From contig JAZSJJ010000001.1 of assembly GCA_045534225.1 (NCBI GenBank), positions 54,800 through 118,799 on the forward strand: a stretch of 64,000 nucleotides of DNA, written 5' to 3'. The stretch comes from Clostridia bacterium (GTDB lineage: Bacteria > Bacillota > Clostridia > TANB77 > CAG-465). The translations under genes were made by a program, and so were the position numbers. Position 1 is the stretch's first letter; each line of letters starts with the position of its first letter. A model generated the notes under the pieces. It was not told where the DNA came from and searched no databases. It saw nothing but the letters and a program-made list of their open reading frames with translations. This document shows, one piece after another, positions 163-60,515 of the stretch.

Positions 163-963
163 ATGCAAAAGAAACAAGGTATATCCTTAATAGTTTTAGT
201 CATTACAATAATAGTAATGATAATTTTAGCAGCTAGTGTAGTAATAACACTTAGCAATACTGGTGTAATAAACAGAGCTAGTAACGCAGTGGATTTAACA
301 AATGAAAGACAAGTACAAGATATGGCTGCGTTGATTTGGGCGGATGCGTACATGGATAATTTAAGAGGAACTGCTTTAGTGACTAAAGTAATAGAGGAAT
401 TAGGAAAACAAGGTGTAACAGAAACTGATTGGAATATAACAGTAACTGATAGTGGGATTAGCATAAATAAACCAAATAATATTGAAATCAGAGCTGCTGG
501 ACTGTACAAATCAAATGGTGAATATGTTTCGTGGGAAACATTAATTTCAAATGATGTTATTAGAGTATCTGGAACTGGATTAGTTAGCGGCTTCGATGGT
601 GATGGAAATAATAGAATGAGTTCATATCTAGATGGAGAACTTGTGCTACCAAACGATGGAAGCATAACAGAAATATTAGGTCAAGCATTTTGTTGCTGTG
701 AAAATTTAACTGGACTTGTTGTACCAGAAGGTGTTACCGAAATACCAATGAATATGCTATTTGAAACACAAAAATTAACAACGTTAACACTACCAACAAC
801 AATAACTAGAATAGAAGCATACATTTTTTATAGCCCAAATCTAACAACTATTAACTACAATGGAACTAAAGCACAATGGAATGCAATAGAAAAAGACGAA
901 CTTTGGGATGATTCAACTGGAGAATATATAATTTATTGTTCAGATGGAAATGTAGAAAAATAA
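163..963 (+). CDS. Surface or secreted protein. The N-terminus resembles a class-III (type IV pilin-like) signal peptide (KKQGISLIVLVITIIVMIILA), followed by a conserved helical module and a C-terminal BspA-type leucine-rich repeat region. Paralogue 1 of 3.
   Basis: GGAGG RBS 8 nt before ATG 163. Basic residues then Gly then a 20-aa hydrophobic run, as in prepilins but with no Glu at +5. C-terminal LTxLxxPxxVTxI-type repeats. The N-terminal 65 aa are conserved with ORFs at 23748 and 59496. Confidence 0.6.
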   Translation: MQKKQGISLIVLVITIIVMIILAASVVITLSNTGVINRASNAVDLTNERQVQDMAALIWADAYMDNLRGTALVTKVIEELGKQGVTETDWNITVTDSGISINKPNNIEIRAAGLYKSNGEYVSWETLISNDVIRVSGTGLVSGFDGDGNNRMSSYLDGELVLPNDGSITEILGQAFCCCENLTGLVVPEGVTEIPMNMLFETQKLTTLTLPTTITRIEAYIFYSPNLTTINYNGTKAQWNAIEKDELWDDSTGEYIIYCSDGNVEK

Positions 964-1095
964 TAAATAAAACAAAGGTGGTAAATATACTACCTTTGTT
1001 TTTATATATTTATTTGGTAAAATTTCACATATTTTAGTTTTAGTGTTTATTTTTTTGTCGTAATATGGTATAATGAACTTGTTGGAGGTAAATTA

Positions 1096-2418
1096 ATGAA
1101 GACAGCGTTAGTTATATTAGGGTGTAGCAAAAACGAAGTAGATAGTGAAATGATTTTAGGTTATCTAGGAAGTATTGGTTTTGAGCTTACACAAAATTTA
1201 GATGAAGCAGAATGTATTGTAGTAAATACATGCGGTTTTATAAAATCTGCTAAGGAAGAAGCAATAAGCGTTATTCTAGATATGGCAGAATACAAAAAAA
1301 TAGGAAATCTTAAACATTTAATCGTAGTAGGATGTTTAGCAAAAAGATATAAGCAGGATATAATAAGAGAATTCAAAGAAGTAGATTTAGTCATTGGTGT
1401 AGATGAATATGATAATCTTAACAACATTTTTTCAGAATATTTCAAATTAAATAAAAGCAAAAATGGATTAGACTTTAATAATAGAATTGTATCAACAACT
1501 TTCCCAACAGCGTATATAAGAATTGCAGATGGATGTAATAATAATTGTCATTATTGCGCTATTCCCCTTATTAGAGGACATTTAAAGTCTAGAAAGATTG
1601 AAGATATTGTAGTTGAAGCTAAAGGTTTAGTAGATAAAGGTATACGTGAACTTGTTGTTATAGCTCAAGACACAACATCATATGGCATAGATATATATGG
1701 TAAACCAATGTTATTTAAGCTAATTCAGGAACTATCTAAATTAGAAGATTTGAAATGGATAAGAGTGTTATATATGTATCCAGGAAAGATAACAGATGAA
1801 CTTATTGAGGAATTTAAGACAAATCCTAAACTTGTGACATATTTCGACATACCTTTACAACATATTTCAGATAATATGTTAAAGGCTATGAATAGACATA
1901 CAAGTAAACAAGAAGTTTATGATTTAGTTGCTAAAATAAGAAAAGAGTTACCAGATGCTGTTTTAAGAACAACTTTAATGGTTGGATATCAAGGAGAAAC
2001 TGAACAGGATTTTGAAGAACTATTACAATGTGTAAGAGACTTTAAATTTGAGCGTTTAGGTGCTTTTACATTCTCTAAAGAAGATGATACTAAAGCTTGG
2101 GATATGCCAGGAGACGTACCAGAGAAAACAAAGAAACAAAGATATAAACTTCTTATGGAAGAACAACAAAAGGTTGTAGCAGAATATATGAAGTCTAATA
2201 TAGGAAGAAAAGTAGAAGTTCTTGTATGCGATGTAGACGATGAAGAAAAATATTTTGTATGTAGATCATATATGGATGCACCAGATGTAGATCCAAAAAT
2301 GTTAATTAAGATTAATAAAGAAAGTATATCAAGAGTTGTAGTTGGTGAATGGACTACAGTAGAAATAACAGGAATAAAGAAATACGATTATATATGTAAA
2401 GTAGTGAAGGGAGAATAG
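1096..2418 (+). CDS. rimO: Ribosomal protein S12 methylthiotransferase RimO (radical SAM MTTase with a TRAM domain)
   Basis: MTTase N-terminal domain (LGCSKNEVDSE), a CxxxCxxC radical SAM motif (CNNNCHYC) and a C-terminal TRAM. Extended -10 TGGTATAAT upstream. Confidence 0.75.
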   Translation: MKTALVILGCSKNEVDSEMILGYLGSIGFELTQNLDEAECIVVNTCGFIKSAKEEAISVILDMAEYKKIGNLKHLIVVGCLAKRYKQDIIREFKEVDLVIGVDEYDNLNNIFSEYFKLNKSKNGLDFNNRIVSTTFPTAYIRIADGCNNNCHYCAIPLIRGHLKSRKIEDIVVEAKGLVDKGIRELVVIAQDTTSYGIDIYGKPMLFKLIQELSKLEDLKWIRVLYMYPGKITDELIEEFKTNPKLVTYFDIPLQHISDNMLKAMNRHTSKQEVYDLVAKIRKELPDAVLRTTLMVGYQGETEQDFEELLQCVRDFKFERLGAFTFSKEDDTKAWDMPGDVPEKTKKQRYKLLMEEQQKVVAEYMKSNIGRKVEVLVCDVDDEEKYFVCRSYMDAPDVDPKMLIKINKESISRVVVGEWTTVEITGIKKYDYICKVVKGE

Positions 2419-2419
2419 A

Positions 2420-3754: not shown

Positions 3755-4058
3755 TATATAAATAAGGCGGTAGATTAAATAATGTCTATCGCTTTATTTT
3801 TGATTCAGTATTTTATAATATATTGAATATGCAAATAAACCTAATGAAGTAAAGTGACAAGAGGTAAATTCAAGAGATATGTATAGGCAAAGACAAAATA
3901 AATTACATTTTTTTAACAAGAAATTAGAAAAACATGCACAAATTACCAAAATGAGACAAAATTATTTACAAAAAATGTAAATTGTATTATTATATAAATG
4001 ATTTTAGAATTGTGCTGAGTTAAGTAACAAAGCGGTTAGACTGAAAGGAGATATGTTT

Positions 4059-4826: not shown

Positions 4827-4881
4827 TTGGCTTACGAAAATGTTAAATAAGTAAAAGTCTCGGCGCAATTTCTAAAATTAT

Positions 4882-4910
4882 ACTCCACAAAGCAAATTGC
4901 TTTGTGGAGT
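4882..4910. terminator. Bidirectional intrinsic terminator hairpin between convergent genes
   Basis: Perfect 12-bp stem actccacaaagc/gctttgtggagt with an AAAT loop. Confidence 0.7.
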
Positions 4911-4921
4911 ATCTATATATC

Positions 4922-5395: not shown

Positions 5396-5781
5396 AAAGC
5401 ACCTCCTATTCAAGTATAATTCATAGTTCATATTAATACAATACAAATTAGATAAATTTTAGCTTTAATGGTAAAAAATACAAAATAATGACGTTGTCCG
5501 ACAAATTGCGTAATGGTAAAGCGATATTGTATGTGCAATAAGAAAATTAATATATCAATTTAGCAATGTTAGTATATTTGCGATATAAAGTATACCTCAT
5601 GTAGTATGTTTAAAAACGAGCATGTCAGCAACAGTTGGTGCAACAACAGATTTTAGCCTAGGGAAATAATAAATTTTAATAAAAGATTTAAGAAAAGGTT
5701 AATCTAGCTGTTAATATTTTTATTTATTTTCAAAATATACTTGCTTTTTATAATATAATTATAGTATAATAATTTTCGCAT

Positions 5782-5855: not shown

Positions 5856-5914
5856 AAGATAGACCCGATAGCAATCGGGTTTTATTATTATACAAAAGAT
5901 ATGAGGTATAACGT

Positions 5915-15799: not shown

Positions 15800-15965
15800 T
15801 CCACGCTCTTTTTCATGTCTATTAACAGGTTACATAAAAAACCTTGAAACCCTTGTAAATAGCGACTTTTTGAGGTGTATAAAATAACGCTAAAAACACT
15901 TGCAAAAGGTCGTATTTTGGTATATAATGATGTCGTGACAAATCGATTAAAATATGAGGTGTAAA

Positions 15966-18900
15966 ATGCAAGAATATTTATTTGAAATTGATAGCGAGGT
16001 CAAACGTAATTTTAAGTTTATAAAATCAACTTATGATTTACTAAACATGAATAATGAACTTAAAATACCTTCGCATTCAGCAGGTCAATGGTTACTAGAT
16101 AACTTATATATTGTAGAACAAGAATATAATAATGCTAGATTATCATTGGAACACGGAATAAGAGTTGGATTACCAACTGTTAAGCCGGCAGACGGAAAGG
16201 AAACACTAAGAGTAATGTTTATGGCAAATGAGATCGTAAACAGAAACAATGGTGTTGTAGATGACGGTATAGTTAGTAATTACATACGCGAATTCCAAAA
16301 ACATACATATGTCACTTTTGAAGAATTATCTGTTTTACCAATTATGCTAAGAATAGCAGTAATAAGATATATTAAAAGAATATGTGTAAACATTTCTAAC
16401 GCAGAAATGCAGAAATTGAAAGTAGAGAAGAGAATAAACAAATCTATCTCTAAAAATGCAGACAAGGTAACTACAAAAACACTTAAAGGTTTAGGTGGTA
16501 TGAAAGAAGAACTTACTATGGCAAATGGTGTTAAAACAAGCAACACTGCTTACATAGAGTATATGGCATACAAACTAAAAGACTTTGGTGCAGGTGGAGA
16601 AGAATACCTTGAAGAATTAAAAGAGGAAACAAACAAAGCGGGATTTACTATCGATGAAGCTATAGAGAAAGAACATGATGAAATAGCAAAAACAACAAGC
16701 TTAATTGCTAATGCTATTACATCAATGAAAACAATCTCAACTACTAACTGGGGAGATGTTATAGTTCACGTTAACAGAATAGACGAAATCCTAAAAGAAG
16801 ATTACACTAAAGAATATAAAAAGTGTGATCATAAAACAAAATCTAGATATAGAGCAACAGTTATTAAACTGGCTAAAAAATATAAAGTTTCTGAAATGTA
16901 TGTAGCTAAAAAAGCAGTAGAGTGTTCATTTAAATATGAAAAACACGTAGGTCATTTCTTAATAGGAGATGATAAAATACTTCTTATTAAGCTAATGAAA
17001 AAGAATCCTACAGGACTTTGGTTATACAACAATGTTGTTAAACCTCTTAAGGCATATATATACATACTATTAATACTTGGATTCGCAGCAACATTTACTA
17101 TAATAGTAGATAAGTTATTTATAGATAATTATTCTATAGGATTTAGAATAACGCTTAACATAATATTATTTGCGTTCGGTATGGAACTTGCAGATAAGTT
17201 GTATTCATACTTAATAGGAAAGTTTGTTCATCCAGAGCCACTTCCTAGATTTAACTTTGCTAAAACTATAGATGAAGAAACAAGTACAATAATCGCTATG
17301 CCAACAGTTATTAATTCAACTGAAAAGCTAGATAAGATGATTAAGAAGATGGAAACTACATATCTTGCAAATAGATCACAAAATATGTATTACATGCTTT
17401 TAGGTGACTGTACATCTACACAAAAAGAATATATTGACCTTGACGAAAAGGTTGTTAAATATGGTAAAAAATTAATTGATGACCTTAATGCAAAATATCC
17501 AGCAGAACCTAAATTATTCAACTTCTTATATAGAAAAAGAGTATATTCAGAATCTGAAGGATGCTATATGGGTTGGGAAAGAAAACGTGGTGCGTTAACA
17601 CAACTTAACCTATTACTTTTAGGAAAACTTTCTAAAGGACAAATAGCAAACTCAATGTATTTAGTACATAATGAAATACCTAAGGTTAAATACCTTATAA
17701 CAATAGACGAAGATACTGCATTATCTTTAAACTCTGCAAAAGAGCTTGTTGCGATTATTTCGCACCCATTAAATAAAGCAGTACTTGCTAAGAATAAAAA
17801 GATAGTTAAATCTGGTTACGGATTAATCCAACCAGCAGTTGGACTAGACATTGAAGCTGCAAACAGCAGTATATTCTCTAAAGTTTTCGGAGGATTTGGT
17901 GGTCTAGACATATATACAAATGCTATTTCAAATATGTATCAAGACATATTTAAAGAAGCTATATATACAGGTAAAGGTATATATGATATAGGACTATTCG
18001 AACAACTAATAGGAGATAAAGTTCCAGAGAACTTAATTCTAAGTCACGACCTATTAGAAGGAAGCTTTATGAGAACAGGTCTTGCATCTGACGTTGAAGT
18101 ACAAGATGGATTCCCATCAAACTTTATAGCATATATGAAGAGAAATCATAGATGGTATAGAGGAGATATGCAAATCATATCTTGGATATTTAGACCTAAG
18201 AGCGGACTAAACTTACTATCTCGTTTCAAAATATTTGATAACTTAAGAAGAGAAATGCTAGATGTATTCTCGTTATTGTTATTAATAGTATCTATGTTCA
18301 TAAAGGGTAATACATTCGTATATGCGTTTGTTGTTACATTCTGTGTAATGAACTTTGGATATCTTTTATCTACATTTGACCAAATAGTATTTGGTAGAAA
18401 TGCAGAGAGAAAACAAAAACAATATATTCCGGTTATATATGGATTAAGAGCAAACTTACTTAAAATGGTGTTTAATATTATAACGCTTCCATATAAAGCA
18501 TGGATAACAATTCACGCTTTCTGTACGTCAATATATAGAATGCTTGTTTCTAAAAAGAAACTTCTAGAATGGGCAACTGCAGAAACTATAGAAAAAGGCG
18601 CTAAAGAAAAAATGTCATATGTTTACAGAAACATGTGGCCAAACACAATATTTGGTTCTGTTATGTTACTATACGCATTATTACATGGTGTAACAACAGG
18701 TAAAGGTATATTTGTATTAATTATGGGTATATTTATGCTAATAGCTCCGTTTGCAGCATATATAATGAGTAAGAAAGTAATATTCGATGGCGGAAATAAA
18801 TTAGACAAGAAAGAAATAGATTTAGTTAAAGAAGTAGGAGAAAAGACTTGGAAATTCTTCGAACATACAATGACAGATCTTAATAATTACTTACCACCAG

Positions 18901-21500
18901 ATAACTACCAAGAAAATAGAAGACCAAAGATAGTAAATAGAACTTCATCAACAAATATTGGTTATGGTGTACTTGCAATAATAAACGCCTATGACCTTGG
19001 ATATATTCCAGTTGAAGAAGCGGTAAATAAACTATATAACACATTAAAAACAGTAGAAAAACTAGAAAAGTGGAATGGTCACTTATATAACTGGTATAAC
19101 ATTAAAACATTAGAGCCATTAAAGCCTAGATTTGTATCTACAGTAGACAGCGGTAACTTTATAGCATGTATATATGTAACAATATCATTACTTAAAAAGC
19201 TATCAGCTTCTAAAATAGTAATGGAAAAATTATCAGACAAGATAATAGAATTACAAAGAATTTGTAATGAATTAGTAGCAGGAGTGGACTTTACTAAATT
19301 ATATGTAAAATCTAAAAACATATTCTCAATAGGGTTTGATGTAGAGGCAAATAAATGTGTAGACAGTTATTACGATATGTTAATGTCTGAATCAAGATTA
19401 ACAAGCTTAATTGCTATTTCAACATCTCAAATAACTTCAAAACACTGGTTTGCGCTTGCAAGACAACTTGTTAAAGTTGGAAACCTAAAAGGTCTTATTT
19501 CATGGAGTGGTACATCGTTTGAATACTTTATGCCAAACCTATTTACTAAGACACACAAATATACATTGATAGACGAAGCATTAAGTTTTGCATTAAACAG
19601 CCAAATAGATTATGCTAAAACAGCTGGTGTGCCTTGGGGTGTATCTGAATCTGCATTTGCGGTACAAGATAACGAACAACATTACCAATATAAAGCATTT
19701 GGTATTCCATGGCTTGGACTTAAGAGAGGTTTAAATGATAATATGGTAATTTCACCTTATTCATCATTAATTTGCTTACCTTATGCTCCTAAAAAAGTTG
19801 TTAACAACATTAAGCACTTAAAGAAATATAATTCATATTCTCACTATGGTTTCTATGAAGCAATAGACTTCACAAAGAGACATATTGGAAGAGATAGAAA
19901 ATATGAAGTAGTAAGAACATATATGGCTCACCACCAAGGTATGGCTCTTACAGCAATAAATAACTTTATAAATAACGGAATAATACAAACAAGATTCCAC
20001 GAGAATCCAAACATAAATGCTTGTGATATTCTATTAAAAGAAAGAGTGCCGTTATCTGTGCCATTAAAAGAAAGCAAGAACTCAATAGACAACAAATTTG
20101 TAGAACCTGCTAAAGAAGCGTTTACAAGTGGTGTTGCATATGAAGATTTTGCTAAATTTAAGAACAGAACTACAGCTATGATTAATACTCATACTAACGG
20201 TAGACTTTCAACTATAATTAAAGACACTGGTGCAAACTTTATGTACTACAAGAACAATGCAATTACTAAGAACAGATTTGTTAAGGATGAAACTTTAGGA
20301 AATGTTGTAGTATTTACAGATAAAACAAGTGGTAAAGTTTGGTCATCAACATACCATCCATTCTATTCTGAGCCTGAAGAATATTCAGTATCTTACTCAT
20401 TATCTTCAAGTGACTTTAGAAGAAAGGATGGACCAATAGAAACAATAACTAAAATATTAGTAGCTCCTAAATTAGATATGGAAATACGTAAATATACGCT
20501 ATTTAATTCATCTAATGAAAGACGTGAAATACTAATAAATACAGAACTAGAACTTGCAATGGCAGACGAAAACGCAAACATAATACATCCTTCATTTAAT
20601 AATTTATTAATAGAAGAATATTATGATGAAAACTTAGAAGCGTTAGTTGCAAGAAAACGTCCTAGAGGAAACCCAGAAGACGATTTCTATGTATTTACTA
20701 AATTAGTAGGTATAGATTTAGCTTATGAAATAGAAACAGAAAAAACTAAGCTATTAAAGGATAATGCTATGCATGCATATGACGGCAAGGTAACCAAATA
20801 TCCATTATGGCCAGTAATGTCATATAGAGCAAGAATTCTTTTAGATCCTGGCGAATCACAAACATTCTATTACTTAACTGGTGCGGCAGATACTAAATAT
20901 AATGTATCTCACGCAATAGTAAATGCAGATAAAGAAACAATAGAAAAAGAAATTCTATTCTCATTACAAAAAGAAAATGTAAATGCTAAATATCAAAAAC
21001 TTGTTCCAAATAGAGCAGCTGCATATAATGATATACTTTCTAAGATACTATTTGAGCATGATAAAGATATGGATGTAAACAAATATTGGGATTCTAAATA
21101 TAGTCAAGCAATGTTATGGAGATTTGGTATTTCTGGAGATTTACCAATTATAACAGTTCCAATAGGAAGATTAGAAGATTCAGCGTTAATTACAGAAGTT
21201 GTAGAATTTATGGATTACGTTAAATCTAGAAAAGTTGACCTAGATATTATCGTTGTAATGGACGAAGAACTATATAGTGGAGAACCTATCAAAACGCATA
21301 TTGACAAAGTGTTAAGTAAAGTGGTATATATGACTTATACAAGAGGAAATATATATACAGTAAACGTAAATACAATGCCTGAAAATGAAAGAGGAATCTT
21401 TGATTTTGTAAGCAGATTAAAAATTGATGGCGTAGATATATTTATGCCAAAGAAAACAAAAGAAAAACCTATGAGTGAGGTGGATGTGAATGAACTATAA
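15966..21500 (+). CDS. Cyclic beta-1,2-glucan synthase-like protein, part 1: N-terminal TM region, a GT84 glycosyltransferase domain, a second TM cluster and an alpha/alpha cyclisation-type domain
   Basis: LLGDCTST (GT84 DxD region), multi-TM blocks and a RTSSTNIGYGVLAI..KWNGHLYNWYN region like the Cgs/NdvB middle domain. GAGGTG RBS before ATG 15966. A TTGCAA-17-TATAAT promoter lies upstream. Confidence 0.7.
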   Translation: MQEYLFEIDSEVKRNFKFIKSTYDLLNMNNELKIPSHSAGQWLLDNLYIVEQEYNNARLSLEHGIRVGLPTVKPADGKETLRVMFMANEIVNRNNGVVDDGIVSNYIREFQKHTYVTFEELSVLPIMLRIAVIRYIKRICVNISNAEMQKLKVEKRINKSISKNADKVTTKTLKGLGGMKEELTMANGVKTSNTAYIEYMAYKLKDFGAGGEEYLEELKEETNKAGFTIDEAIEKEHDEIAKTTSLIANAITSMKTISTTNWGDVIVHVNRIDEILKEDYTKEYKKCDHKTKSRYRATVIKLAKKYKVSEMYVAKKAVECSFKYEKHVGHFLIGDDKILLIKLMKKNPTGLWLYNNVVKPLKAYIYILLILGFAATFTIIVDKLFIDNYSIGFRITLNIILFAFGMELADKLYSYLIGKFVHPEPLPRFNFAKTIDEETSTIIAMPTVINSTEKLDKMIKKMETTYLANRSQNMYYMLLGDCTSTQKEYIDLDEKVVKYGKKLIDDLNAKYPAEPKLFNFLYRKRVYSESEGCYMGWERKRGALTQLNLLLLGKLSKGQIANSMYLVHNEIPKVKYLITIDEDTALSLNSAKELVAIISHPLNKAVLAKNKKIVKSGYGLIQPAVGLDIEAANSSIFSKVFGGFGGLDIYTNAISNMYQDIFKEAIYTGKGIYDIGLFEQLIGDKVPENLILSHDLLEGSFMRTGLASDVEVQDGFPSNFIAYMKRNHRWYRGDMQIISWIFRPKSGLNLLSRFKIFDNLRREMLDVFSLLLLIVSMFIKGNTFVYAFVVTFCVMNFGYLLSTFDQIVFGRNAERKQKQYIPVIYGLRANLLKMVFNIITLPYKAWITIHAFCTSIYRMLVSKKKLLEWATAETIEKGAKEKMSYVYRNMWPNTIFGSVMLLYALLHGVTTGKGIFVLIMGIFMLIAPFAAYIMSKKVIFDGGNKLDKKEIDLVKEVGEKTWKFFEHTMTDLNNYLPPDNYQENRRPKIVNRTSSTNIGYGVLAIINAYDLGYIPVEEAVNKLYNTLKTVEKLEKWNGHLYNWYNIKTLEPLKPRFVSTVDSGNFIACIYVTISLLKKLSASKIVMEKLSDKIIELQRICNELVAGVDFTKLYVKSKNIFSIGFDVEANKCVDSYYDMLMSESRLTSLIAISTSQITSKHWFALARQLVKVGNLKGLISWSGTSFEYFMPNLFTKTHKYTLIDEALSFALNSQIDYAKTAGVPWGVSESAFAVQDNEQHYQYKAFGIPWLGLKRGLNDNMVISPYSSLICLPYAPKKVVNNIKHLKKYNSYSHYGFYEAIDFTKRHIGRDRKYEVVRTYMAHHQGMALTAINNFINNGIIQTRFHENPNINACDILLKERVPLSVPLKESKNSIDNKFVEPAKEAFTSGVAYEDFAKFKNRTTAMINTHTNGRLSTIIKDTGANFMYYKNNAITKNRFVKDETLGNVVVFTDKTSGKVWSSTYHPFYSEPEEYSVSYSLSSSDFRRKDGPIETITKILVAPKLDMEIRKYTLFNSSNERREILINTELELAMADENANIIHPSFNNLLIEEYYDENLEALVARKRPRGNPEDDFYVFTKLVGIDLAYEIETEKTKLLKDNAMHAYDGKVTKYPLWPVMSYRARILLDPGESQTFYYLTGAADTKYNVSHAIVNADKETIEKEILFSLQKENVNAKYQKLVPNRAAAYNDILSKILFEHDKDMDVNKYWDSKYSQAMLWRFGISGDLPIITVPIGRLEDSALITEVVEFMDYVKSRKVDLDIIVVMDEELYSGEPIKTHIDKVLSKVVYMTYTRGNIYTVNVNTMPENERGIFDFVSRLKIDGVDIFMPKKTKEKPMSEVDVNEL

Positions 21501-23646
21501 AGCATATAATGGATATGGTGGTTTTAATATAACAGGAGACGAGTATGAGGTGTTAAACACCCATACTCCTGTCCCTTGGTGTAATGTATTAACAAACGAG
21601 AGATTCGGTACCTTAGTATCTACATATGGAACGGTTTATTCATTCTATAAAAATGCTGGTGAATTTAAATTAACTCACTGGTGTAATGACTGGGCAGATT
21701 TTGTACCAGGTGAAAAATTTAGAGGTATATATGATACAGGGTATAATCTAACTTTTGGTTTTGGTTATACTAAAGTAAGAGAAGAACACGGCAATATTGA
21801 AAGAAATATGGATATATTTGTTCCAATAGATGATGATGTAAAAGTACATTATATAGAAATTAAGAATAATAGAGCTATAGACAAAGAAGTAACTATAGAA
21901 TACACTCCAGATATGGTTATGGGTGTTGCTAAAGAGAAATCTAGTCCATACGTATTATGCAAATTAGAAGATGATGCAATGTACTTTAAGAATCCATATA
22001 ACGAGTTCTTTGGTGGTGTTACTACATATGTCAAAGGTGTTCTGTTAGAAGGCACAGAAGGCGCTGTGGAATATGACGAAGAAACACATACGGTTAGAGT
22101 AAGATGTATTGCAAAGAAGGATGAAGTAAGAAGCATAGCGATTCTATTTGGCGCTACTGATGAAGGAATAGAAAAGGCTAAGCATGTACTTGAAAAATAT
22201 TCTAGCGAGGCCAATATATTAGCTGAATACGAAAAAACAAAAGCGTACTGGAGAAGTAAAGTTGTACGTAATTTCAAAACTGGAAATGAGTACGTAGATA
22301 TCTTAGCTAATGGGTGGTTAATGTATCAAACATTAGCATCTAGACTATTTGCTAGAACTGGACTTTACCAAGCTGGTGGAGCTTTTGGGTATAGAGATCA
22401 ATTACAAGATACATTAGCATTAATTTCATCTTGGCCAGAAAGAACAAGAGCGCAAATAATAAAACACGCACACAAACAATTTGAAAAAGGTGATGTTTTG
22501 CACTGGTGGCACGAACATAATTCAAGAGGAATTAGAACTCGCTTTAGCGATGACTATCTATGGCTACCATATGTTCTTAGTGAATATATATTTAAGACTA
22601 AAGATATGACTGTATTAAATGAGACAGCTTCATTTTTAGAAGATAAACCTTTAGGCGAACACAAGGAACTTTATGATTACTTTGCGCCTACTGGAGTCTA
22701 TGCTACTGTTTATGAACATGCGGTAAGAGCTATAAAATACGGCTTGTCTAGAAAAGGTAGACATGGGTTGTTAGAAATAGGCGATGGAGATTGGAATGAC
22801 GGTTTCAGCAATATAAACGGTGAATCTGTATGGCTAACATTCTTTATGATAGACATATTAGATAGATTTATTAAACTAGCAGATATGATGAAAAACGAAG
22901 AAGATTCTAAATATTTTGCAAACGAAAGACATATTCTAAAACATACAGTTATAGATTATGCATGGACGGGAGAATACTTTGCAAGGGCATTCTATCCAGA
23001 TGGAACTCCAATAGGAACACCAGATAGTCCAGATTGCAAAATAGACTTAATATCTCAAGCTTGGGCGGCTATAGCTCTTAAAGAATATATAGACTGCAAA
23101 GAAGAGATAGATTTAAGCTTAGAGAGTGCAGAAAAGTATCTAGTAGATAGAGAACATGGAGTAATAAAACTTCTTTATCCACCATTTGATAGTCCTAAGA
23201 ATAACCCAGGGTACATTAAAGCATATGTTCCTGGTGTTAGAGAAAATGGAGGACAATATACACACGCGGCAATATGGCTTGCAAAAGCATATTTTGAAAT
23301 AAATAAGCCAGAAAAAGCGTTAGATATATTAAGTATATTAAACCCAATAAATCATAGCAACGATAAAGAAAGAGCTGAGATTTATCAAGTAGAACCTTAT
23401 GTTGTTGCTGCTGATGTTTATGCAAATCCAGATCATGTTGGACGTGGCGGATGGACTTGGTATACAGGTTCTTCAGGTTGGATGTATAAAGTAATAGAAG
23501 ACAATTTTAATCAAGTAGGAACAGAAACTACTGAACTTAAGGAAGAAAAGAAACCAGTTAAAAGAACTACTAGAAAGAAAAAAGTAGAACCGGTTGCAGA
23601 AGAAGTAAAAGAAGAAACTACTACAGAAGTAGAAAATGTAGAATAA
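21490..23646 (+). CDS. GH94 (cellobiose phosphorylase-like) domain protein, equivalent to the C-terminal part of cyclic beta-1,2-glucan synthase. The ATG overlaps the upstream stop.
   Basis: GAFGYRDQLQD and GDGDWNDG GH94 catalytic-region motifs. The start ATGAACTATAA overlaps the TAA of the preceding ORF. Lys/Glu-rich C-terminal tail. Confidence 0.75.
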   Translation: MNYKAYNGYGGFNITGDEYEVLNTHTPVPWCNVLTNERFGTLVSTYGTVYSFYKNAGEFKLTHWCNDWADFVPGEKFRGIYDTGYNLTFGFGYTKVREEHGNIERNMDIFVPIDDDVKVHYIEIKNNRAIDKEVTIEYTPDMVMGVAKEKSSPYVLCKLEDDAMYFKNPYNEFFGGVTTYVKGVLLEGTEGAVEYDEETHTVRVRCIAKKDEVRSIAILFGATDEGIEKAKHVLEKYSSEANILAEYEKTKAYWRSKVVRNFKTGNEYVDILANGWLMYQTLASRLFARTGLYQAGGAFGYRDQLQDTLALISSWPERTRAQIIKHAHKQFEKGDVLHWWHEHNSRGIRTRFSDDYLWLPYVLSEYIFKTKDMTVLNETASFLEDKPLGEHKELYDYFAPTGVYATVYEHAVRAIKYGLSRKGRHGLLEIGDGDWNDGFSNINGESVWLTFFMIDILDRFIKLADMMKNEEDSKYFANERHILKHTVIDYAWTGEYFARAFYPDGTPIGTPDSPDCKIDLISQAWAAIALKEYIDCKEEIDLSLESAEKYLVDREHGVIKLLYPPFDSPKNNPGYIKAYVPGVRENGGQYTHAAIWLAKAYFEINKPEKALDILSILNPINHSNDKERAEIYQVEPYVVAADVYANPDHVGRGGWTWYTGSSGWMYKVIEDNFNQVGTETTELKEEKKPVKRTTRKKKVEPVAEEVKEETTTEVENVE

Positions 23647-23652: not shown

Positions 23653-23683
23653 TAAGAGTGCATAGAAATATGTGCTCTTTTTA
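23653..23683 (+). terminator. Terminator hairpin, copy 1 of an identical 31-bp direct repeat
   Basis: taagagtgcatagaaatatgtgctcttttta; it is repeated exactly at 24913-24943. Confidence 0.7.
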
Positions 23684-23747
23684 TGTTTTTATTGACTAAA
23701 GGCAAAATATAAAATATACTATGTATATATGTGCAAAGGAGAAAAAA

Positions 23748-24902
23748 GTGAACAAGAAACAAGGAATATCATTAATAGTATTAGTAATAACTATAATAGT
23801 TATGATAATATTAGCGTCTGTAGTTGTTATTTCAATAAGCGATACAGGAATAATAAACAGAGCGAATCAAGCAGTAGACGAATCAAACGAGAAGCAGGTA
23901 CAAGATTTAGCTGCGTTGGTTTGGGCTGATTCTTTTATGACTGGAAAAAGGGGTGCTGAGTTAGAAGAAGATGTCTTAGACAAACTAAAAGACTATGTAG
24001 ATAAATATGAGATAATAGTTACAGATACAGGAGCTAGTGTAGTTAACAAAGATTCATTATTAAATACAACACTAGGACACTTAATTACAAGTGCCAAAGA
24101 CTATGGAAAAACTATAAATTATGAAGCGAACGGAGTAACAGATTGGAAAGTATTTTATCATACAGAAAACTATGTATATTTAATAGCCACTGAAGCATTA
24201 GCCATGGATCAACTGCCAATACAAAAGATGGCTGCAGAACATAAAATTCCGTTAGTAACAAAGCTTGTAACTAAACCGAATGGAACAACAAAAGTAATTG
24301 GACATATAAATCTTCAAAGCAGTGCTACCCACAGAGATGTGATAGCGGCAACAATACAACGCCCAGAATTATGGATGGCCAATTTTGGGGATTATTCAAA
24401 AAATTATGGCAAGCTAATATCTTGTTATTTAGATGAAACAATATGGGATTTATATAAGAATACAACATCAAGATACAGTGAGTACATAGAAGGAGCTATA
24501 GGCACTCCCACTGTCGAAATGTTTGTAGCAAGTTGGAATGCTAAAAGAGAAGCAACTGGAGATTTTGAAACGTATAACAAGAAACTTGCATTAGTATCTG
24601 ATGGTAGTAAAGGATACTATGTAAATGATATAACTTCTGGTGAGCCTGCTACAAGTAATACGTCTTACCAATATATCACGCCAACCGATACTTTATATAC
24701 ATGGGATTATTCAAGCCACAATTCGGATATATATTTAGCGGGAATGTCTACCTTCGATAACGGTTCGCAAATGATATTACAAATGGGGTATGGTATTAGA
24801 TATTTCGGAAATAATGGTGCAACAGGTGGATTAAGACCTGTAATTTGCTTAAGAGCAGATGTGCCAGCAGGAACAGGAATAAAAACAGATTTTATAATAT
24901 AA
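23748..24902 (+). CDS. Pilin-like N-terminal module protein, paralogue 2 of 3. The C-terminal domain differs from paralogue 1 and is related to paralogue 3.
   Basis: AAAGGAG RBS then GTG 23748 (NKKQGISLIVLVITIIVMIILA). The N-terminal 65 aa are conserved with 163 and 59496. C-terminal PVICLRA..AGTG..TDF motif shared with paralogue 3. Confidence 0.55.
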   Translation: MNKKQGISLIVLVITIIVMIILASVVVISISDTGIINRANQAVDESNEKQVQDLAALVWADSFMTGKRGAELEEDVLDKLKDYVDKYEIIVTDTGASVVNKDSLLNTTLGHLITSAKDYGKTINYEANGVTDWKVFYHTENYVYLIATEALAMDQLPIQKMAAEHKIPLVTKLVTKPNGTTKVIGHINLQSSATHRDVIAATIQRPELWMANFGDYSKNYGKLISCYLDETIWDLYKNTTSRYSEYIEGAIGTPTVEMFVASWNAKREATGDFETYNKKLALVSDGSKGYYVNDITSGEPATSNTSYQYITPTDTLYTWDYSSHNSDIYLAGMSTFDNGSQMILQMGYGIRYFGNNGATGGLRPVICLRADVPAGTGIKTDFII

Positions 24903-28814: not shown

Positions 28815-28845
28815 CCGTAAATTAATACGGGCTCTTATTTTTTTA
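28815..28845. terminator. Bidirectional terminator after clpX
   Basis: cccgtaaattaatacggg hairpin followed by a T-run. Confidence 0.7.
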
Positions 28846-29187
28846 CTCAAAAGCTTCGCTCATGTGAGCAAGTCTTTTAGCATTCCATGAGATGTTTTTG
28901 GCCAAAATTGTCTTAGCTAAAGGAAGGAAGATATCATCATCCTTGATAGCATCGAAGAAACCTTTGAAGTTTGAAAAACTGGTATCTTCACACATAAATC
29001 GGAATACTCTTTCGAAATATTCTGTTGTAAGTTCTAGTTGTCCCTTGCCGGGTTTACGGTATCTGCAGTTTGGCAGATCATCGCTTAAATATTCCTTCCA
29101 AGCCAACATTACAATCTTGCCGTCTAAGCAAGTAAAAGTGTAATGGGTGGGGTTTTTCTTCGAATCAACACATGAAAAGGTCTGCAT
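28843..29187 (-). CDS. Hypothetical small protein, paralogue A of a tandem pair; GC-elevated (about 40%)
   Basis: Shares an FxxxC-DxxF-x-KGF...D-xF scaffold with the 29315 ORF. Has its own RBS (AAAAGGAGAAAC) and terminator. Confidence 0.45.
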   Translation of the reverse strand: MQTFSCVDSKKNPTHYTFTCLDGKIVMLAWKEYLSDDLPNCRYRKPGKGQLELTTEYFERVFRFMCEDTSFSNFKGFFDAIKDDDIFLPLAKTILAKNISWNAKRLAHMSEAFE

Positions 29188-29314: not shown

Positions 29315-29671
29315 TTACGCTTCTTCGAGCGCAAGTGACATTCTACGGATTTTATTTGCCATGGAACCAATGTATCCAGCAATAATTCTTTCTGCATCCT
29401 TTCTAAATGTCTCATCCATATTCAGTTGTTCAAGAAATCCCTTATAGTCAGTAAAGACAGGATCGGTGCAGACCACTCTAAATGCCTTATCAAACAAAGG
29501 CTTGGAGATAGGGTGCTGCCCTTTTGTGGGATTGGCGTACGCTTCTACGGCAACTACTTTGCTGGAAGCTTTACATACAGAAAGCTTTACCAGTTTGCCT
29601 TCGGAAAATTTGAAGTCGTACCTAATTTTACTGTGATGGTCGGTTGCTTGAAAAGTCTTCAATCTAAACAC
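29315..29671 (-). CDS. Hypothetical small protein, paralogue B of the tandem pair; GC-elevated
   Basis: RBS TTAAGGAG before the ATG. The terminator is a gagctcacag..gcgagccc hairpin. Similar to 28843. Confidence 0.45.
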   Translation of the reverse strand: MFRLKTFQATDHHSKIRYDFKFSEGKLVKLSVCKASSKVVAVEAYANPTKGQHPISKPLFDKAFRVVCTDPVFTDYKGFLEQLNMDETFRKDAERIIAGYIGSMANKIRRMSLALEEA

Positions 29672-31636: not shown

Positions 31637-32596
31637 TTATTTTAATTTATTTAATGGATTATTATCTATAGCAGATTTAACTTCATCACTATCTATATGA
31701 GTATATATTTGAGTTGTAGCTATTGTTTCATGTCCTAATACTTGTTGTAATGTTCTAATATCTACACCAGCGTGTTTATGCATTAATGTAGCTGCAGTGT
31801 GTCTAAGCTTATGTGGTGTATATTTTTTGGGATCAAGCCCAGCACTTATTATATATTGTTTAACCATTATTTCTACCATTCTAGGAGATATACGTTTATA
31901 CTTTTTACTTATAAATAATGCGCGTCTATCGTCGCCTTTAACCTTATCAACCGGTCTAACCTTAAGATAAGCTTCAATAGCGTCTAAACAGGCCTTATTT
32001 AGGTGCACAGAGCGTTCTTTGTTACCTTTACCAATAACGGACAATGTATCGCCTTTAATATGTTCTAAATTGATTCCTACAAGCTCAGAAAGACGCAAAC
32101 CACAGTTTAGAAAGACTGTAAGGATAGCATAATCTCTTTCTTTGAACTCGCCTTGGACAGAGTGGAGTAGGGCAAGTGACTCATCTAGATTTAAATATTT
32201 TGGTAATCTTTTTTCTAATTTTGGTGCTTCAAGCCCAGAAGTTGGATTTCTTTCAATTTTTTTAGAAATATCACATAAATATTTATAAAATGATTTAATT
32301 GATGAAATTTTACGAGCTCTTGAAATTGCTTTAGTATTTTTATCATATAAATAATTATATATATCTGAAGTTTCTACAGATTTAAAAAAATTTAAATCTA
32401 AATCTGAAATATCAATTTCTTTATAATTTTCAATTTTAATATTATATTTATCACGTTTAATAAATTGAAAAATATCTCTAAGATCATAATAATATTCATT
32501 AACAGTATTTTTAGATCTGTTTTTAGTAATGATTAGATAATTCTTAAGGTAATCTTGCAAAATTACCGGCAAATCGTCATAAGACGGATGTTTCAT
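31637..32596 (-). CDS. Tyrosine site-specific recombinase (XerC/XerD-like integrase)
   Basis: C-terminal catalytic motifs R..HxxR..Y (RHTAATLM..LGHETIATTQIYTHI) and an N-terminal SAM-like core-binding domain. GGAGGT RBS before ATG 32596. Confidence 0.8.
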   Translation of the reverse strand: MKHPSYDDLPVILQDYLKNYLIITKNRSKNTVNEYYYDLRDIFQFIKRDKYNIKIENYKEIDISDLDLNFFKSVETSDIYNYLYDKNTKAISRARKISSIKSFYKYLCDISKKIERNPTSGLEAPKLEKRLPKYLNLDESLALLHSVQGEFKERDYAILTVFLNCGLRLSELVGINLEHIKGDTLSVIGKGNKERSVHLNKACLDAIEAYLKVRPVDKVKGDDRRALFISKKYKRISPRMVEIMVKQYIISAGLDPKKYTPHKLRHTAATLMHKHAGVDIRTLQQVLGHETIATTQIYTHIDSDEVKSAIDNNPLNKLK

Positions 32597-33060
32597 AAAT
32601 ACCTCCAAAAAGTGACGCTCTAGAATCGATTTTAAGACGTTTTTATTAATGGGGCCATATAGTTTGACCTTGAAAAAAAGGCCCCTAAAACGCCAAAATG
32701 GAAAATAGGGCTAAAATGACTAATTTTGTATATAGACACATATATAATGTATAAAATTTTATAAAATGTATATACAGATATATAATTATGTAGTAGAATA
32801 ATTAGAGTAAGACAAGTAAGAGAATATATATGTATAAATAAATAAAAAATATATATACGTAATTAGTCAAAGAGCCTAGAAAGGCTTAATATACATATAT
32901 AATATCAGAAGAGGGCTTCATATGCAATAGTTCCTTCTCCAAAATACACAAAATATCTATTTTGCGAAATAACACATAACAAAATAAGAGCCTTTCTTCT
33001 TATGGACTACTTCTTCTATTATGTGTTAATTTCGTTTTTTTAATTTTGTATTCTACTTTA

Positions 33061-48446: not shown

Positions 48447-48447
48447 T

Positions 48448-50225: not shown

Positions 50226-50467
50226 AAAAACACCTACCTTTCTACGCGCAAAAAAATACATTACCTGAGGTAACTTAAAGATTAAAGATTCTTTGTATTT
50301 TTCCTTTCTTCTTTTTACTCTACTGTAATGTATTTTTGTAACGTATGCCACAGACTATATCACAAACAGAATTATTTGTAAATAGTTTTTTATAAAATAT
50401 TTTAGAAAAATTAAAATATTGTATATTGTCTACTTTTATGTTAATATTTTCATATGAGGTGTATACT

Positions 50468-50890
50468 ATGAAGAAAAATGAAATGTTTAGATATATAATA
50501 ATAGCCGTTCTAATATGTGTGTTAGTATTTATAATTCCATTACTGATGATTAATAGATATCTAAATGTAAATAACACAGGAGCATTAGGCGTTACTTTTA
50601 AGGACTTATACGAATCTAATCTTACTAATGATCAAAAAACAACCCTTACTATATTAAGGAACTCTTGTAATAGCAACTTAATTATTATGAAAAAAGGATT
50701 TCAGCTTATGTTTATATATTTTGTAACATTGATAAGCATGATTTTATTAATTTCAGGTGTATCTTTAATGAAAGAACAGCCTGTTAGATTCAAAGTTTAT
50801 TTATGCTTGTTTTTTGCATTGATAATCGGTGTAATTGTTTTTACTTTACTCTTCCCTTCAATGTTACAATCAACATTTAAACTTTATTAA
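50468..50890 (+). CDS. Hypothetical membrane protein
   Basis: GAGGTG RBS before ATG 50468. Several TM helices. Confidence 0.4.
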   Translation: MKKNEMFRYIIIAVLICVLVFIIPLLMINRYLNVNNTGALGVTFKDLYESNLTNDQKTTLTILRNSCNSNLIIMKKGFQLMFIYFVTLISMILLISGVSLMKEQPVRFKVYLCLFFALIIGVIVFTLLFPSMLQSTFKLY

Positions 50891-50934
50891 TGTAAAAAGG
50901 AACCTTGAATTTCTTCTTGGCTCCTTCTTTTTTA

Positions 50935-51621
50935 TTAATTCAACTTACTAAGTTCAAACTTTGTATAATCTCCACTAACCATTTTGTATTCTACTCCATC
51001 TATGTTACCCTCTTTTATCATGTAGTGTCCATCTCCGTGCAGATGTCCATAGATACATAGTTTTACATTGTATTTCTTAAACATTTCTTTTATCTCATAT
51101 CTAAATGGCGGGAAGTGTGTCATTACTATTATTGGTTTGTCTTTATCCTCTTCTTTAATACTGTTTAAAGATAATTCTAAACGTACCAATTCTCTTTTAT
51201 ATACCTTGCTGTCATCTACAGTATCATCATCTGTATTTCCCCAGCCTCTAAAACCACATATATTGTATCCTTCTACTAGATATGAATCATTGTTTAATAC
51301 AGTTATTGTGTCAAAGTTATTATCCTTTAAGAATTTGTTTACTTTAGTTAGTGTTGAGAAATAATAATCATGGTTTCCTTTAATTATTATTTTCTTTCCG
51401 GGTAGGCTATTTAAATAGCTAAAATCTTCATATGCGGCTTCTAGTGTTAATGCCCAAGATATATCTCCTGGAATTAAAACAGTATCATCATCTGTTACAG
51501 TCTTTTTCCAATTCTCATCTATTTTAGCTTCATAGTCTTTCCATTCTTCTCCAAAGACTTCCATAGATTTATTCTTTATCGCTTTGGATAAATGTAAATC
51601 TGATAGTGCATATATAGCCAT
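50935..51621 (-). CDS. Metallophosphoesterase (calcineurin-like)
   Basis: DLHLS, GDISW and GNHDYY motifs. Confidence 0.75.
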   Translation of the reverse strand: MAIYALSDLHLSKAIKNKSMEVFGEEWKDYEAKIDENWKKTVTDDDTVLIPGDISWALTLEAAYEDFSYLNSLPGKKIIIKGNHDYYFSTLTKVNKFLKDNNFDTITVLNNDSYLVEGYNICGFRGWGNTDDDTVDDSKVYKRELVRLELSLNSIKEEDKDKPIIVMTHFPPFRYEIKEMFKKYNVKLCIYGHLHGDGHYMIKEGNIDGVEYKMVSGDYTKFELSKLN

Positions 51622-54334: not shown

Positions 54335-54347
54335 ATGTCCTCCGTTT

Positions 54348-58125: not shown

Positions 58126-58165
58126 ACATTTCTCCTTTCTAATCTAATATATTTTGTACAAATAT

Positions 58166-59371: not shown

Positions 59372-59455
59372 GGAAAGGTGGTGTTTTTTTGTTGCATCTT
59401 TTTTATTAATTTATCCACACACAAATTTATGCAAAAATGTTATAGAAAATATTAA

Positions 59456-59476
59456 AGAGGGACTTAAAATCCCTCT
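59456..59476. terminator. Hairpin (perfect 7-bp stem) between the pilin-like gene 3 and the downstream EPS genes
   Basis: agaggga-cttaaaa-tccctct. Confidence 0.45.
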
Positions 59477-59495
59477 TATATTTGTTTTATTTTAA

Positions 59496-60515
59496 TTATT
59501 TTATTAAAGAAAAATCTGTTGTTGTTCCTGCTTTAGCAAGTATTGAAGCTTTTAAGCACACAACAGGATATATACCATAAGCTTCAGTATTAGTATATGA
59601 CGACTCATGCTTTATAGCCGAATCACCCGCTACCAGCACGCCAGTATTGCTATTACCCACAGGCGAAGTTGTCCAACAATAACCACTTTTAGGTATATAT
59701 AAGCCGTCATTCATAAATCCTGATCCGTTTATATTATAACCCCATTTAGTATCACTTAAAACCGGTGTTATGCGTGGCATATAACCCTTAGCGTTCCAGC
59801 CAGCAGCTAGTAATTCTATAGGCGGACCACCTATCGCACCAACAACATTATCCCCATAGTCTGTATAATTAGCAAATGTCGAATATGTTCTTATTAAATA
59901 TGCAACTCCTCGTGCGCTATATGTATATGGATCTGTTATATCAACTTTTTCATTATTGCCTACTCTAAACACATCGTAAAGTTCTAATTCTGCCGCCGTA
60001 AGTTCGTCTGGTGAAACTCCAAGCGAATTAACGTTTCCAAAGGTGCCATAATGTCCAACCTTCTCGCCAGCTATTAAATACACATATTCTTCGTTGTGAT
60101 AATATATTCGCCAATTATTATATGTAGCGCCATTCACAGTTACCGTATAGTCTATCGTATCACCATAATTATCTGGTGTGATTAGTGAGCCTAAAGGTGT
60201 TCTATTTTTAACGCTTGAAATTGATATATTTGTGTTAGAAATACTAATATCCCAGTTAGCATCTGTTATGCCTTGTTCGTCAAGTCGTAATTTTACCTCA
60301 TTTACTAGTTCTTGATCTGTTAGTCCCTTCATATACGAATCCGCCCATATTAATGCCGCTAAATCTTGCACTTGCTTTTCATTAGTTAATTCTACCGCTT
60401 GATTAGCTCTCTCTATTATACCGGTATTACTAAGCGTTATTAATATACTCACTGATAGTATTATCATAACTATTATTGTTATTACTAATACTATTAAAGA
60501 TATTCCTTTTTTCAT
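59496..60515 (-). CDS. Pilin-like N-terminal module protein, paralogue 3 of 3, embedded in the EPS operon
   Basis: MKKGISLIVLVITIIVMIIL.. The N-terminal 65 aa are conserved with 163 and 23748. The C-terminal region is related to paralogue 2 (YVYLIA, PVVCLKA..AGT..TDF). AAGGAGAAAC RBS. Confidence 0.55.
   Translation of the reverse strand: MKKGISLIVLVITIIVMIILSVSILITLSNTGIIERANQAVELTNEKQVQDLAALIWADSYMKGLTDQELVNEVKLRLDEQGITDANWDISISNTNISISSVKNRTPLGSLITPDNYGDTIDYTVTVNGATYNNWRIYYHNEEYVYLIAGEKVGHYGTFGNVNSLGVSPDELTAAELELYDVFRVGNNEKVDITDPYTYSARGVAYLIRTYSTFANYTDYGDNVVGAIGGPPIELLAAGWNAKGYMPRITPVLSDTKWGYNINGSGFMNDGLYIPKSGYCWTTSPVGNSNTGVLVAGDSAIKHESSYTNTEAYGIYPVVCLKASILAKAGTTTDFSLIK

Follow-up and report, generated by a model that had tools for sequence, protein, structure and literature searches.

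The three genes described here probably (at roughly 0.7) encode modular type IV pilins that belong to a lineage-specific, type IVa-like pilus system, because the ~100-aa unit at their N-termini aligns with small pilins that stand at the major-pilin position of pilus operons in related genomes. They belong to a very large, unannotated family of uncultured gut Clostridia, in which a complete and unusually invariant pilin-like unit is fused to many different binding domains, most likely for display on the pilus. The homology of paralogue 1 to the operon-encoded small pilins spans their whole length, modular genes co-occur with pilus machinery in relatives, and the C-terminal modules are binding-type domains, which we count in favour of this reading. 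From these observations we infer cleavage, methylation, filament incorporation, and an adhesive role of the modular proteins.

The three genes and their common N-terminal module

All three open reading frames that a preliminary description had listed for the window (the whole 64-kb stretch of DNA analysed) are present at the coordinates it gave (Table 1). The conserved helical segment that it reported is seen in the protein alignment of the three paralogues, where the N-terminus reads M(x)KK(Q)G followed by ISLIVLVITIIVMIIL, with G-ISLIVLVITIIVMIIL invariant. In the window, a degenerate DNA pattern for GISLIVLVITIIV occurs at the three paralogues and nowhere else, where 100 shuffles gave an expectation of 0. 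Of the 59 residues that follow the Gly, each pair of paralogues shares 44-47; 18-21 of these identical residues have different codons, and nucleotide identity is 75-79%. The differing synonymous codons imply that the segment was kept by selection on the protein and that the genes are therefore not recent duplicates, which upholds the view that they are old paralogues.

Table 1. Features of the window, with positions counted from its first nucleotide.
Feature	Position	Strand	Remarks
Conserved structured 5' leader of paralogue 1, 3' part	1..162	+	5' end cut off by the window start; order: P2 3' half, (AC)9 tract, hairpin P3, P1 3' strand, terminator-like hairpin, RBS
(AC)9 dinucleotide tract in the leader	11..29	+	
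Terminator-like hairpin of the leader	94..138	+	AGCAAAGTAACATACAT-AGAA-ATATGTGTGCGGCTTTGC, then T6; just upstream of RBS 148-154
Paralogue 1	163..963	+	266 aa; modular pilin-like protein
Leader peptide of paralogue 1	163-180		MQKKQG
Pilin module of paralogue 1	163-~468		aa 1-~102
BspA-type LRR module of paralogue 1	661-861	+	aa 167-233 matched; profile match
Terminator-like hairpin before the promoter-like site of paralogue 2	23654-23679		consensus match only
Promoter-like site of paralogue 2	23692..23720	+	TTGACT-17-TATACT; consensus match only
Paralogue 2	23748..24902	+	384 aa, GTG start; pilin module, then domain common with paralogue 3
Terminator-like hairpin directly 3' of paralogue 3	59455..59477	-	within polysaccharide gene cluster; consensus match only
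Paralogue 3	59496..60515	-	339 aa; leader peptide MKKG
Pilin module of paralogue 3	60515-~60213		aa 1-~101
Predicted enlarged C-type-lectin-like domain of paralogue 3			aa ~105-339

Paralogue 2 starts at GTG 23748, which is preceded by an AAGGAG ribosome-binding site. An ATG at 23721 was ruled out as its start by this ribosome-binding site and by the position after the promoter-like site. Paralogue 3 has a Polysacc_synt (Wzx-like) gene on one side and an FrhB/4Fe-4S gene on the other. Thus, of its earlier placement between wzx and Fe-S/pyruvyl-transferase genes, the Wzx-like and Fe-S flanks stand, while the pyruvyl transferase lies two genes upstream.

The N-terminal module is common to all three paralogues, as proposed, but it is longer than the ~65 aa first assigned to it. 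Alignment with stand-alone small pilins extends the unit to ~100 aa, that is, to a whole pilin-sized domain. Specifically, the stand-alone pilin P0198 matches aa 4-97 of paralogue 1 (E 1e-16), and alignments of its pilin module with 60 small pilins run from one end to the other. An AF2 model of paralogue 1 aa 1-108 (pLDDT 82.8) shows two helices, the first of them long, and a beta-hairpin.

Statistics for the N-terminus were drawn from 356 family proteins. All leaders end in Gly; 344 are 4-10 aa long and the remaining 12 reach up to 26 aa, those of the window being MKKG, MQKKQG, and M(V)NKKQG. In all 356 proteins, the hydrophobic stretch after the Gly (ISLIVLVITIIVMIILAASVVITL) has zero charged residues in its first 24 mature positions. 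Mature position +1 is Ile and position +5 is Val (355 of 356), so that the Glu5 frequent, though not obligatory, in type IV pilins is absent. A 16-residue N-terminal stretch is identical in 68% of the proteins despite an overall identity of ~50%, which is the pattern expected of a common machine and filament core. An ordinary uncleaved signal anchor, which would make these type II membrane proteins whose helix is pilin-like by chance and has no link to a pilus, is very unlikely. The missing Glu5, the lack of a prepilin profile match, and the lack of a peptidase domain in the examined loci would all suit it, but a generic anchor would hardly stay unchanged over 16-20 residues in proteins of ~50% identity and in the face of synonymous divergence, or coincide exactly with the helix of a small protein at the pilin position of a pilus operon.

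No model of Pfam, NCBIfam, or PHROGs matches the pilin module of the three proteins, the only match being LRR_5. N_methyl (PF07963) and TIGR02532 give no match at E <= 1 for paralogues 1-3 and none at E <= 0.001 among 96 family members. Furthermore, sequence and profile searches of the PDB with the module found no pilin, and Foldseek against the PDB returned nothing significant. TadF, holin, FliL, and DUF3566 models aligned with the hydrophobic helix at scores under their thresholds, which we regard as an effect of composition; a likeness between the end of the helix (..ITLSNTGVINRA..) and archaellin N-termini was dropped, as no profile result supports it. Phage-derived receptor-binding or lysis-type proteins might be hinted at by weak matches of PHROGs and holin models, which fall on the hydrophobic N-terminus and the LRR region. 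Such an origin is extremely improbable, for every match to the N-terminus is below threshold and the neighbours are housekeeping and polysaccharide genes, with no phage structural genes nearby.

Pilus operons of related genomes

We linked the module to pilus machinery through PilD-like homologues and their contigs. Type IVa-like pilus operons with a small pilin occur in six related assemblies (L001, L002, L083/84, L086/87, L088, L089), in the order PilM/N-like genes, small pilin, then PilD-like, PilB, PilT, and PilC genes. The small proteins at the major-pilin position have 105-128 aa and the identical N-terminus MKKGISLIVLVITIIVMIII. The assembly L089 (JAZTYX) is a congener with 88-92% nucleotide identity to the window over >25 kb, and in it a gene of the paralogue-2/3 type (364 aa) lies directly 3' of pilC. 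A modular gene directly follows pilC in L002, L086, and L088 as well. The association of the pilin N-terminus with a machinery operon is thus found in these relatives (six operons), and the 64-kb window contains no pilus operon.

The preliminary description had read the N-terminus as pilin-like and of class III type (signal peptide class as defined in PMC10191384), without Glu5. The same N-terminus on small proteins in the PilB/PilT/PilC operons of relatives, including the congener, bears this out. It had also held that the finding should be downgraded if no prepilin-type profile matched and the genes fell into a well-characterised family. The first of these is what we observe, while the genes fall into no well-characterised non-pilin family and the operon context favours a pilin.

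The PilD-like protein of the operon has the A24 N-terminal (methylase-type) domain only, and a peptidase domain is lacking in all 120 homologues listed. A regex search of 1.26 Mb of related loci for membrane ORFs with the GxGD-type A24 peptidase motif gave none that was genuine, the matches being Asp23-like false positives. Several observations count against a pilin: there is no Glu5, no N_methyl or TIGR02532 match, and no pilin match in the PDB, and the sole PilD-like gene found is without a peptidase domain. To our knowledge, ~two dozen minor pilins per genome are also far above any studied system.

In the proposed mechanism, the precursor would be inserted by SRP/Sec with its leader staying in the cytoplasm, and the leader would be cut off after the Gly by a putative prepilin-type peptidase. 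The common helix would then let the PilB/PilC machine put the modular protein into the filament or at its tip. The filament itself would be built mainly from the stand-alone pilin of 105-128 aa with the same N-terminus, and PilT would retract it. The module grafted on the C-terminus, a BspA-type LRR in paralogue 1 and a predicted enlarged C-type-lectin-like domain in paralogues 2 and 3, would bind the ligand. With a large and variable repertoire of ~two dozen such proteins per genome, a single pilus would be able to bind many different targets in the gut.

C-terminal modules, family size, and known systems

The BspA-type leucine-rich repeats reported for paralogue 1 are confirmed by a match to LRR_5 (PF13306; E 6.4e-11, 42.7 bits against the Pfam cut-off of 27.7), which also matches in the family at large (10 of 96 members). 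We take IPR026906 to be the entry for BspA-type LRR. The C-terminal domain said to be common to paralogues 2 and 3 is likewise seen in the protein alignment, and both copies fall in the same BLAST cluster. Its predicted structure is best read as an enlarged C-type-lectin-like fold. The domain shares ~13% identity with the N-terminal domain of the Thomasclavelia ramosa IgA peptidase and the C-terminal domain of Legionella Lcl, which are DUF1566-type C-type-lectin-like folds (PMC12237041), and has no sequence-profile match to DUF1566-type C-type-lectin-like domains. Thus, the combination that defines a modular pilin, a complete pilin module plus an extra non-pilus domain, is found here by way of LRR_5 and the putative C-type-lectin-like fold.

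The family is matched at E <= 1e-10 by at least 2,451 clusters (50% identity). Each genome has at least 12-26 copies, and BLAST clustering separates the C-terminal parts into at least 25 clusters. At the orthologous locus of a close relative, an unrelated C-terminal module follows the same pilin module. The idea of a conserved N-module with exchangeable C-termini is thereby borne out. A genome scan with the N-module found only modular loci among the 76 loci listed; none of these 76 contains machinery genes, and the less similar major-pilin loci lie outside these matches. The family had been called undescribed. This is largely correct in that its module is matched by none of the Pfam, NCBIfam, and PHROGs models and by no sequence of the PDB, but some homologues have been auto-annotated as 'type II secretion system protein' or 'pseudopilin PulG', and the concept of a modular pilin is published (PMC8179133).

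Indeed, modular type IV pilins with adhesive modules are an established mechanism, exemplified by PilB and PilC of Streptococcus sanguinis and surveyed in the census of Raynaud et al. 2021 (PMC8179133; PMC9934059). Architectures of a pilin plus an extra domain are known and rank among the commoner ones, and IPR026906 is listed in that census (PMC8179133). The present family would have escaped it, as it matches no models of the IPR012902 type. Like the S. sanguinis proteins, those described here have a small pilin module, a short linker, and a functional binding module, and are coded with or near type IVa machinery including PilT in a monoderm bacterium. In contrast, the S. sanguinis pilins have Phe/Met1 and Glu5 where this family has Ile1 and Val5, and they number two, whereas this family has at least 12-26 members per genome, most of them outside the operon. 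Furthermore, the presumed major pilin here has the same helix as the modular pilins.

The family resembles canonical type IV pilins in its hydrophilic leader ending in Gly, the 20-25 hydrophobic residues that follow, and the linkage to PilB/PilC/PilT. Its predicted shape may be that of a lollipop. The family differs from them in an N-terminal helix without any acidic residue, even in the presumed major pilin, and in a minimal globular head (one helix and one hairpin), with no profile or sequence match. The uncultured gut order TANB77 is known to have a conserved Tad-type pilus cluster with TadZ/CpaE, TadA, and TadB/C (PMC11680825). That cluster too has pilin-like proteins of uncultured low-G+C gut Clostridia that escape standard annotation, but the system described here has PilB, PilT, PilC, and PilM/N-like proteins. 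We rejected the TANB77 cluster (PMC11680825) as a direct precedent, since it is Tad-type. A search for Tad/Flp pilin identity in the window proteins gave TadF at 14.4 bits against a cut-off of 27.3 and no Glu-Tyr motif.

[quoted passage not shown] On that model, the N-terminus would be a general targeting and anchoring signal, and the proteins would be processed and stand at the surface as monomers or short, pseudopilus-like assemblies instead of forming part of long pili, much as the sugar-binding proteins of Sulfolobus do. In the number and variety of carriers per genome, the N-terminus resembles a targeting signal more than the mark of minor pilins, class III signal peptides serve archaea in this way (PMC3047682), and most copies are scattered in the genome with their own promoters and terminators. 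Even so, we consider this quite unlikely. What the proteins share is a whole pilin domain and not a signal alone, several modular genes directly follow pilC, and the operon has a PilT-type retraction ATPase, which implies dynamic filaments. The machinery is, moreover, bacterial and type IVa-like, and no homology to the bindosome was detected.

The leader RNA of paralogue 1 and wider implications

The 162 nucleotides upstream of paralogue 1, which the preliminary description had passed over, form the 3' part of a structured leader. This leader has ~80-89% DNA identity to regions upstream of ~28 other N-module genes in 5 MAGs. Its consensus structure comprises 36 pairs, with 98% of cells paired and compensatory changes at 6 pairs. 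The helix of the terminator-like hairpin has 16 pairs, three of which show compensatory changes across 22 leaders. The (AC)n tract varies from ~3 to 13 repeats among otherwise conserved leaders. No Rfam family matches the leader, and exact-pattern scans of JGI metagenomes for it found nothing. With its (AC)n tract, the common leader RNA may represent a new kind of element for regulation in cis.

A broader reading, which we put forward tentatively and hold to be unlikely as a whole, would make the type IVa-like machine a general display platform, to whose filament the invariant, uncharged, Glu5-less module targets dozens of different effector modules per genome. It would bring in split-enzyme processing, and the choice of the module expressed would be set by the leader with its (AC)n tract and by recombination with the pilin module as homology anchor. 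One part of the split enzyme would be the methylase-type domain, which in the operon is joined to a Glu5-bearing pilin; the other would be a peptidase that is encoded elsewhere or is of a novel type. The leader would be a common attenuator-type RNA, in which the variable (AC)n tract could lead to phase-variable or combinatorial expression.

Type IV pili are generally held to need Glu5, which would neutralise the amine of the N-terminus inside the filament core, and to have no more than a few minor pilins. Both expectations appear to be broken in this lineage of gut Clostridia, with a charge-free helix in the presumed major pilin and ~two dozen modular pilins per genome. If the modular proteins are assembled into filaments, they would provide a natural test of the role of Glu5 and of N-methylation, and they would show the reach of the strategy of grafting modules onto pilins. 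Assembly would also mean that current domain models overlook thousands of surface proteins in uncultured gut Clostridia.

A conserved pilin-like module in the three paralogues

The preliminary description had claimed three ORFs sharing an N-terminal module, and these were confirmed in the window as described (paralogues 1 to 3). A back-translated GISLIVLVITIIV pattern gave three matches in 64 kb, all at the three paralogues, and none in 100 shuffles. In protein alignment the paralogues are 37-39% identical overall, the stretch from Gly to ...MIIL being invariant and the helical segment conserved. Of the 59 residues past Gly, 44-47 are identical per pair, with different codons at 18-21 of the identical ones; thus, selection on the protein has kept the N-terminal identity. 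A search with residues 1-69 matched many proteins of 105-121 aa starting MKKGISLIVLVITIIVMIII. One aligned to residues 4-97 of paralogue 1 (E 1e-16), and an alignment of 60 such small proteins covered its first 108 residues end to end. Therefore, the module is conserved as claimed, but its extent is that of a complete small domain of ~100 aa, not just a signal plus 40 residues.

Across 356 family members, the N-terminal leader spans 4-10 residues in 344 and as many as 26 in the remaining 12; its commonest forms are MKKG and MQKK[KQ]G, and its final residue is always Gly (356/356). Mature position +1 is Ile in 353 and position +5 Val in 355, mature positions 1-24 hold no charged residue in any member, and a 16-residue stretch is identical in 68%. 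A plain signal anchor is very unlikely, as it would leave unexplained both this N-terminal invariance and the identity to the small pilin of the operon described below.

The G+C content of 30.5%, together with housekeeping genes (rimO/miaB-like, rho, RNase J, gltX, ileS, tig, clpP, clpX, polA, yebC) and polysaccharide genes, shows that the window is chromosomal and comes from a Clostridia-type organism of low G+C; a phage origin found no support and is exceedingly improbable. Paralogue 2 begins with GTG; an AAGGAG ribosome-binding site ends seven bases before this codon, and a TTGACT-17-TATACT site lies upstream. Paralogue 3 forms its own unit within a polysaccharide cluster encoded on the same strand (pyruvyl transferase, HIT, Wzx-like, FrhB/4Fe-4S, GT1, O-antigen-ligase-like, GT2), which, with the hairpin after its stop codon, suggests that it was inserted there.

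Directly upstream of paralogue 2, a gene for an 1848-aa protein is followed by a GH94 gene (Glyco_hydro_94, E 9e-97); the two resemble a split cyclic beta-1,2-glucan synthase or a glycan phosphorylase pair. Elsewhere in the window, a neighbouring pair of small paralogous ORFs of 114 and 118 aa, to which no function was assigned, lies near a tyrosine recombinase gene, in a region aligning more weakly to relatives (84% vs ~90%).

Coordinates of the features discussed
Feature	Sequence	Position	Remark
Paralogue 1	window	163-963 (+)	LRR C-terminal module
Paralogue 2	window	23748-24902 (+)	putative C-type-lectin-like module
Paralogue 3	window	59496-60515 (-)	putative C-type-lectin-like module
Paralogue 3 unit	window	59455-60572	terminator-like hairpin directly 3' of stop codon
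1848-aa and GH94 genes	window	15954-23646	
Small ORF pair	window	28843-29187; 29315-29671 (-)	
Tyrosine recombinase	window	31637-32608	
Site of the JAZTYX member	window	50403-50935	~530 bp; small ORF from 50687
Paralogue 1 counterpart	L021 (JAZOWO contig 100)	363-977	
Additional family member	L057 (JAZTYX contig 8)	7196-8560	
PilD-like gene	L001	10506-11333	
PilD-like gene	L002	10965-11762	
PilD-like gene	L086	10001-10828	
PilD-like gene	L089 (JAZTYX contig 52)	6001-6828	
Further operon pilin-like genes	L001	5496-6512; 11335-11766; 11770-11946	
Relative of 338-aa protein	L032	4773-5234	153 aa
5' leader	window	1-162	
5' leader	L012	8945-9158	
5' leader	L086	15560-15756	

A pilus operon in relatives

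The small pilins are encoded in a conserved operon in two related loci, L001 and L002, and the same operon occurs in L083/L084, L086/L087, L088 and L089. Its genes encode, in order, a PilM/N-like product (PilN match, E 1e-5), a pair of small membrane proteins, one or two copies of the small pilin, a PilD-like protein, another two pilin-like proteins (~143 and ~58 aa), PilB (T2SSE; TIGR02538, 393 bits), PilT (TIGR01420, 275 bits) and PilC (T2SSF). None was found within the 64-kb window, and we infer its presence in the window's own genome. Contigs of the MAGs JAZOWO and JAZTYX are 88-93% identical to the window in nucleotides across tens of kilobases, and JAZTYX carries the whole operon in L089, with a pilin of 124 aa. 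Directly 3' of its pilC lies a gene for a 364-aa protein with a C-terminal domain of the paralogue-2/3 type (terminus ...GIRPVVCLKASIPATVGTTTDFSLVK); L002, L086 and L088 likewise have modular genes after pilC, and the MAG JAFXHJ holds, besides the operon, at least 19 modular genes. We read paralogues 1 to 3 as modular minor pilins shown by a retractile pilus (probability about 0.7). That the class-III-type signal serves, bindosome-like, for surface display without long filaments is unlikely.

In the PilD-like protein (265-290 aa), only the A24 N-terminal domain is recognised (E 8e-28), with no Peptidase_A24 match; among the matches listed, 120 of 120 homologues have PF06750 alone and none has Peptidase_A24. 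In prepilin peptidase, the methylase part corresponds to the N-terminal domain, and cleavage requires two Asp residues (PMC10191384). Across 34 aligned PilD-like proteins, the four zinc-site Cys are invariant, Asp is not conserved at the first catalytic position and the GxGD motif is absent. A Lys/Glu-rich linker joins the A24 N-terminal domain to a C-terminal half that reads KKAG|ALNxE/D and continues with a hydrophobic helix, then a small domain; this half is a pilin-like unit in its own right, acidic at +5. A search of related loci totalling 1.26 Mb gave no candidate for a leader-removing peptidase.

Three further operon pilin-like proteins of L001, with equivalents in L002, L083, L086 and L089, begin MKKG|ITIASL.., KHG|ITVSSL.. 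and KRG|SATLVV.., all lacking Glu5; for the one of 338 aa, L032 encodes a family-sized relative.

Repertoire, turnover and a structured 5' leader

A one-genome-per-species scan gave at least 567 pattern matches, with 290 confirmed among the matches listed; its best 76 loci are confined to five MAGs, each with at least 12-26 distinct N-module ORFs, mostly of 160-610 aa. A few shorter ones in one MAG are probably truncated ORFs. By BLAST, the C-terminal parts fall into at least 25 clusters, with 30 members of the paralogue-2/3 type, 18 of a second type and 12 of the LRR type. Few are recognised by Pfam (LRR_5 in 10, DUF6273 in 9), with single matches in the family to Beta_helix, DUF285 and Sialidase N-terminal. 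Searched against 1.84 billion cluster representatives, the pilin-module profile matched 2,451 at E <= 1e-10 and 20,756 at E <= 1e-3, the best 150 being 107-660 aa long.

The JAZOWO locus orthologous to paralogue 1, upstream of rimO, has flanks ~93% identical to the window. Its pilin module is 73% identical over 99 residues, and the C-terminal 100 residues and the upstream region and leader are unrelated. JAZTYX carries a 430-aa family member at a site where the window has none. Thus, the repertoire turns over between congeners, the pilin module being its constant part. The window site holds a small ORF (67 aa, MKKGFQLMFIYF...) whose start is vaguely pilin-like.

A common 5' leader of ~200 nt precedes paralogue 1 and ~28 other family genes of differing C-terminal types, including the gene after pilC in L086; paralogues 2 and 3 do not have it. 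Its elements are a 9-pair helix around a small hairpin, an (AC)n tract that varies from ~3 to 13 repeats, another hairpin and, just 5' of the ribosome-binding site, a 16-pair terminator-like hairpin with a T run. In 22 sequences, 98% of cells were paired, against 30-49% with partners slid, and six pairs showed compensatory changes. An Rfam search gave no match, and JGI metagenomes, scanned twice by pattern, gave no exact one. The leader looks like an attenuator; a role of the (AC)n repeat in phase variation is speculation.

Relation to known modular pilins

We take IPR026906 to be the BspA-type LRR entry. Modular pilins are already known, and pilin fusions to extra domains, including IPR026906, are among their common architectures (PMC8179133, PMC9934059). 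TANB77 has a Tad-type pilus cluster (PMC11680825), which is a different system. What is new here is a class-III-type module missed by standard models; an N-terminal helix lacking any acidic residue, that of the presumed major pilin included; the fusion of a truncated PilD-like protein; the leader common to many family genes; and a repertoire of this size and turnover.
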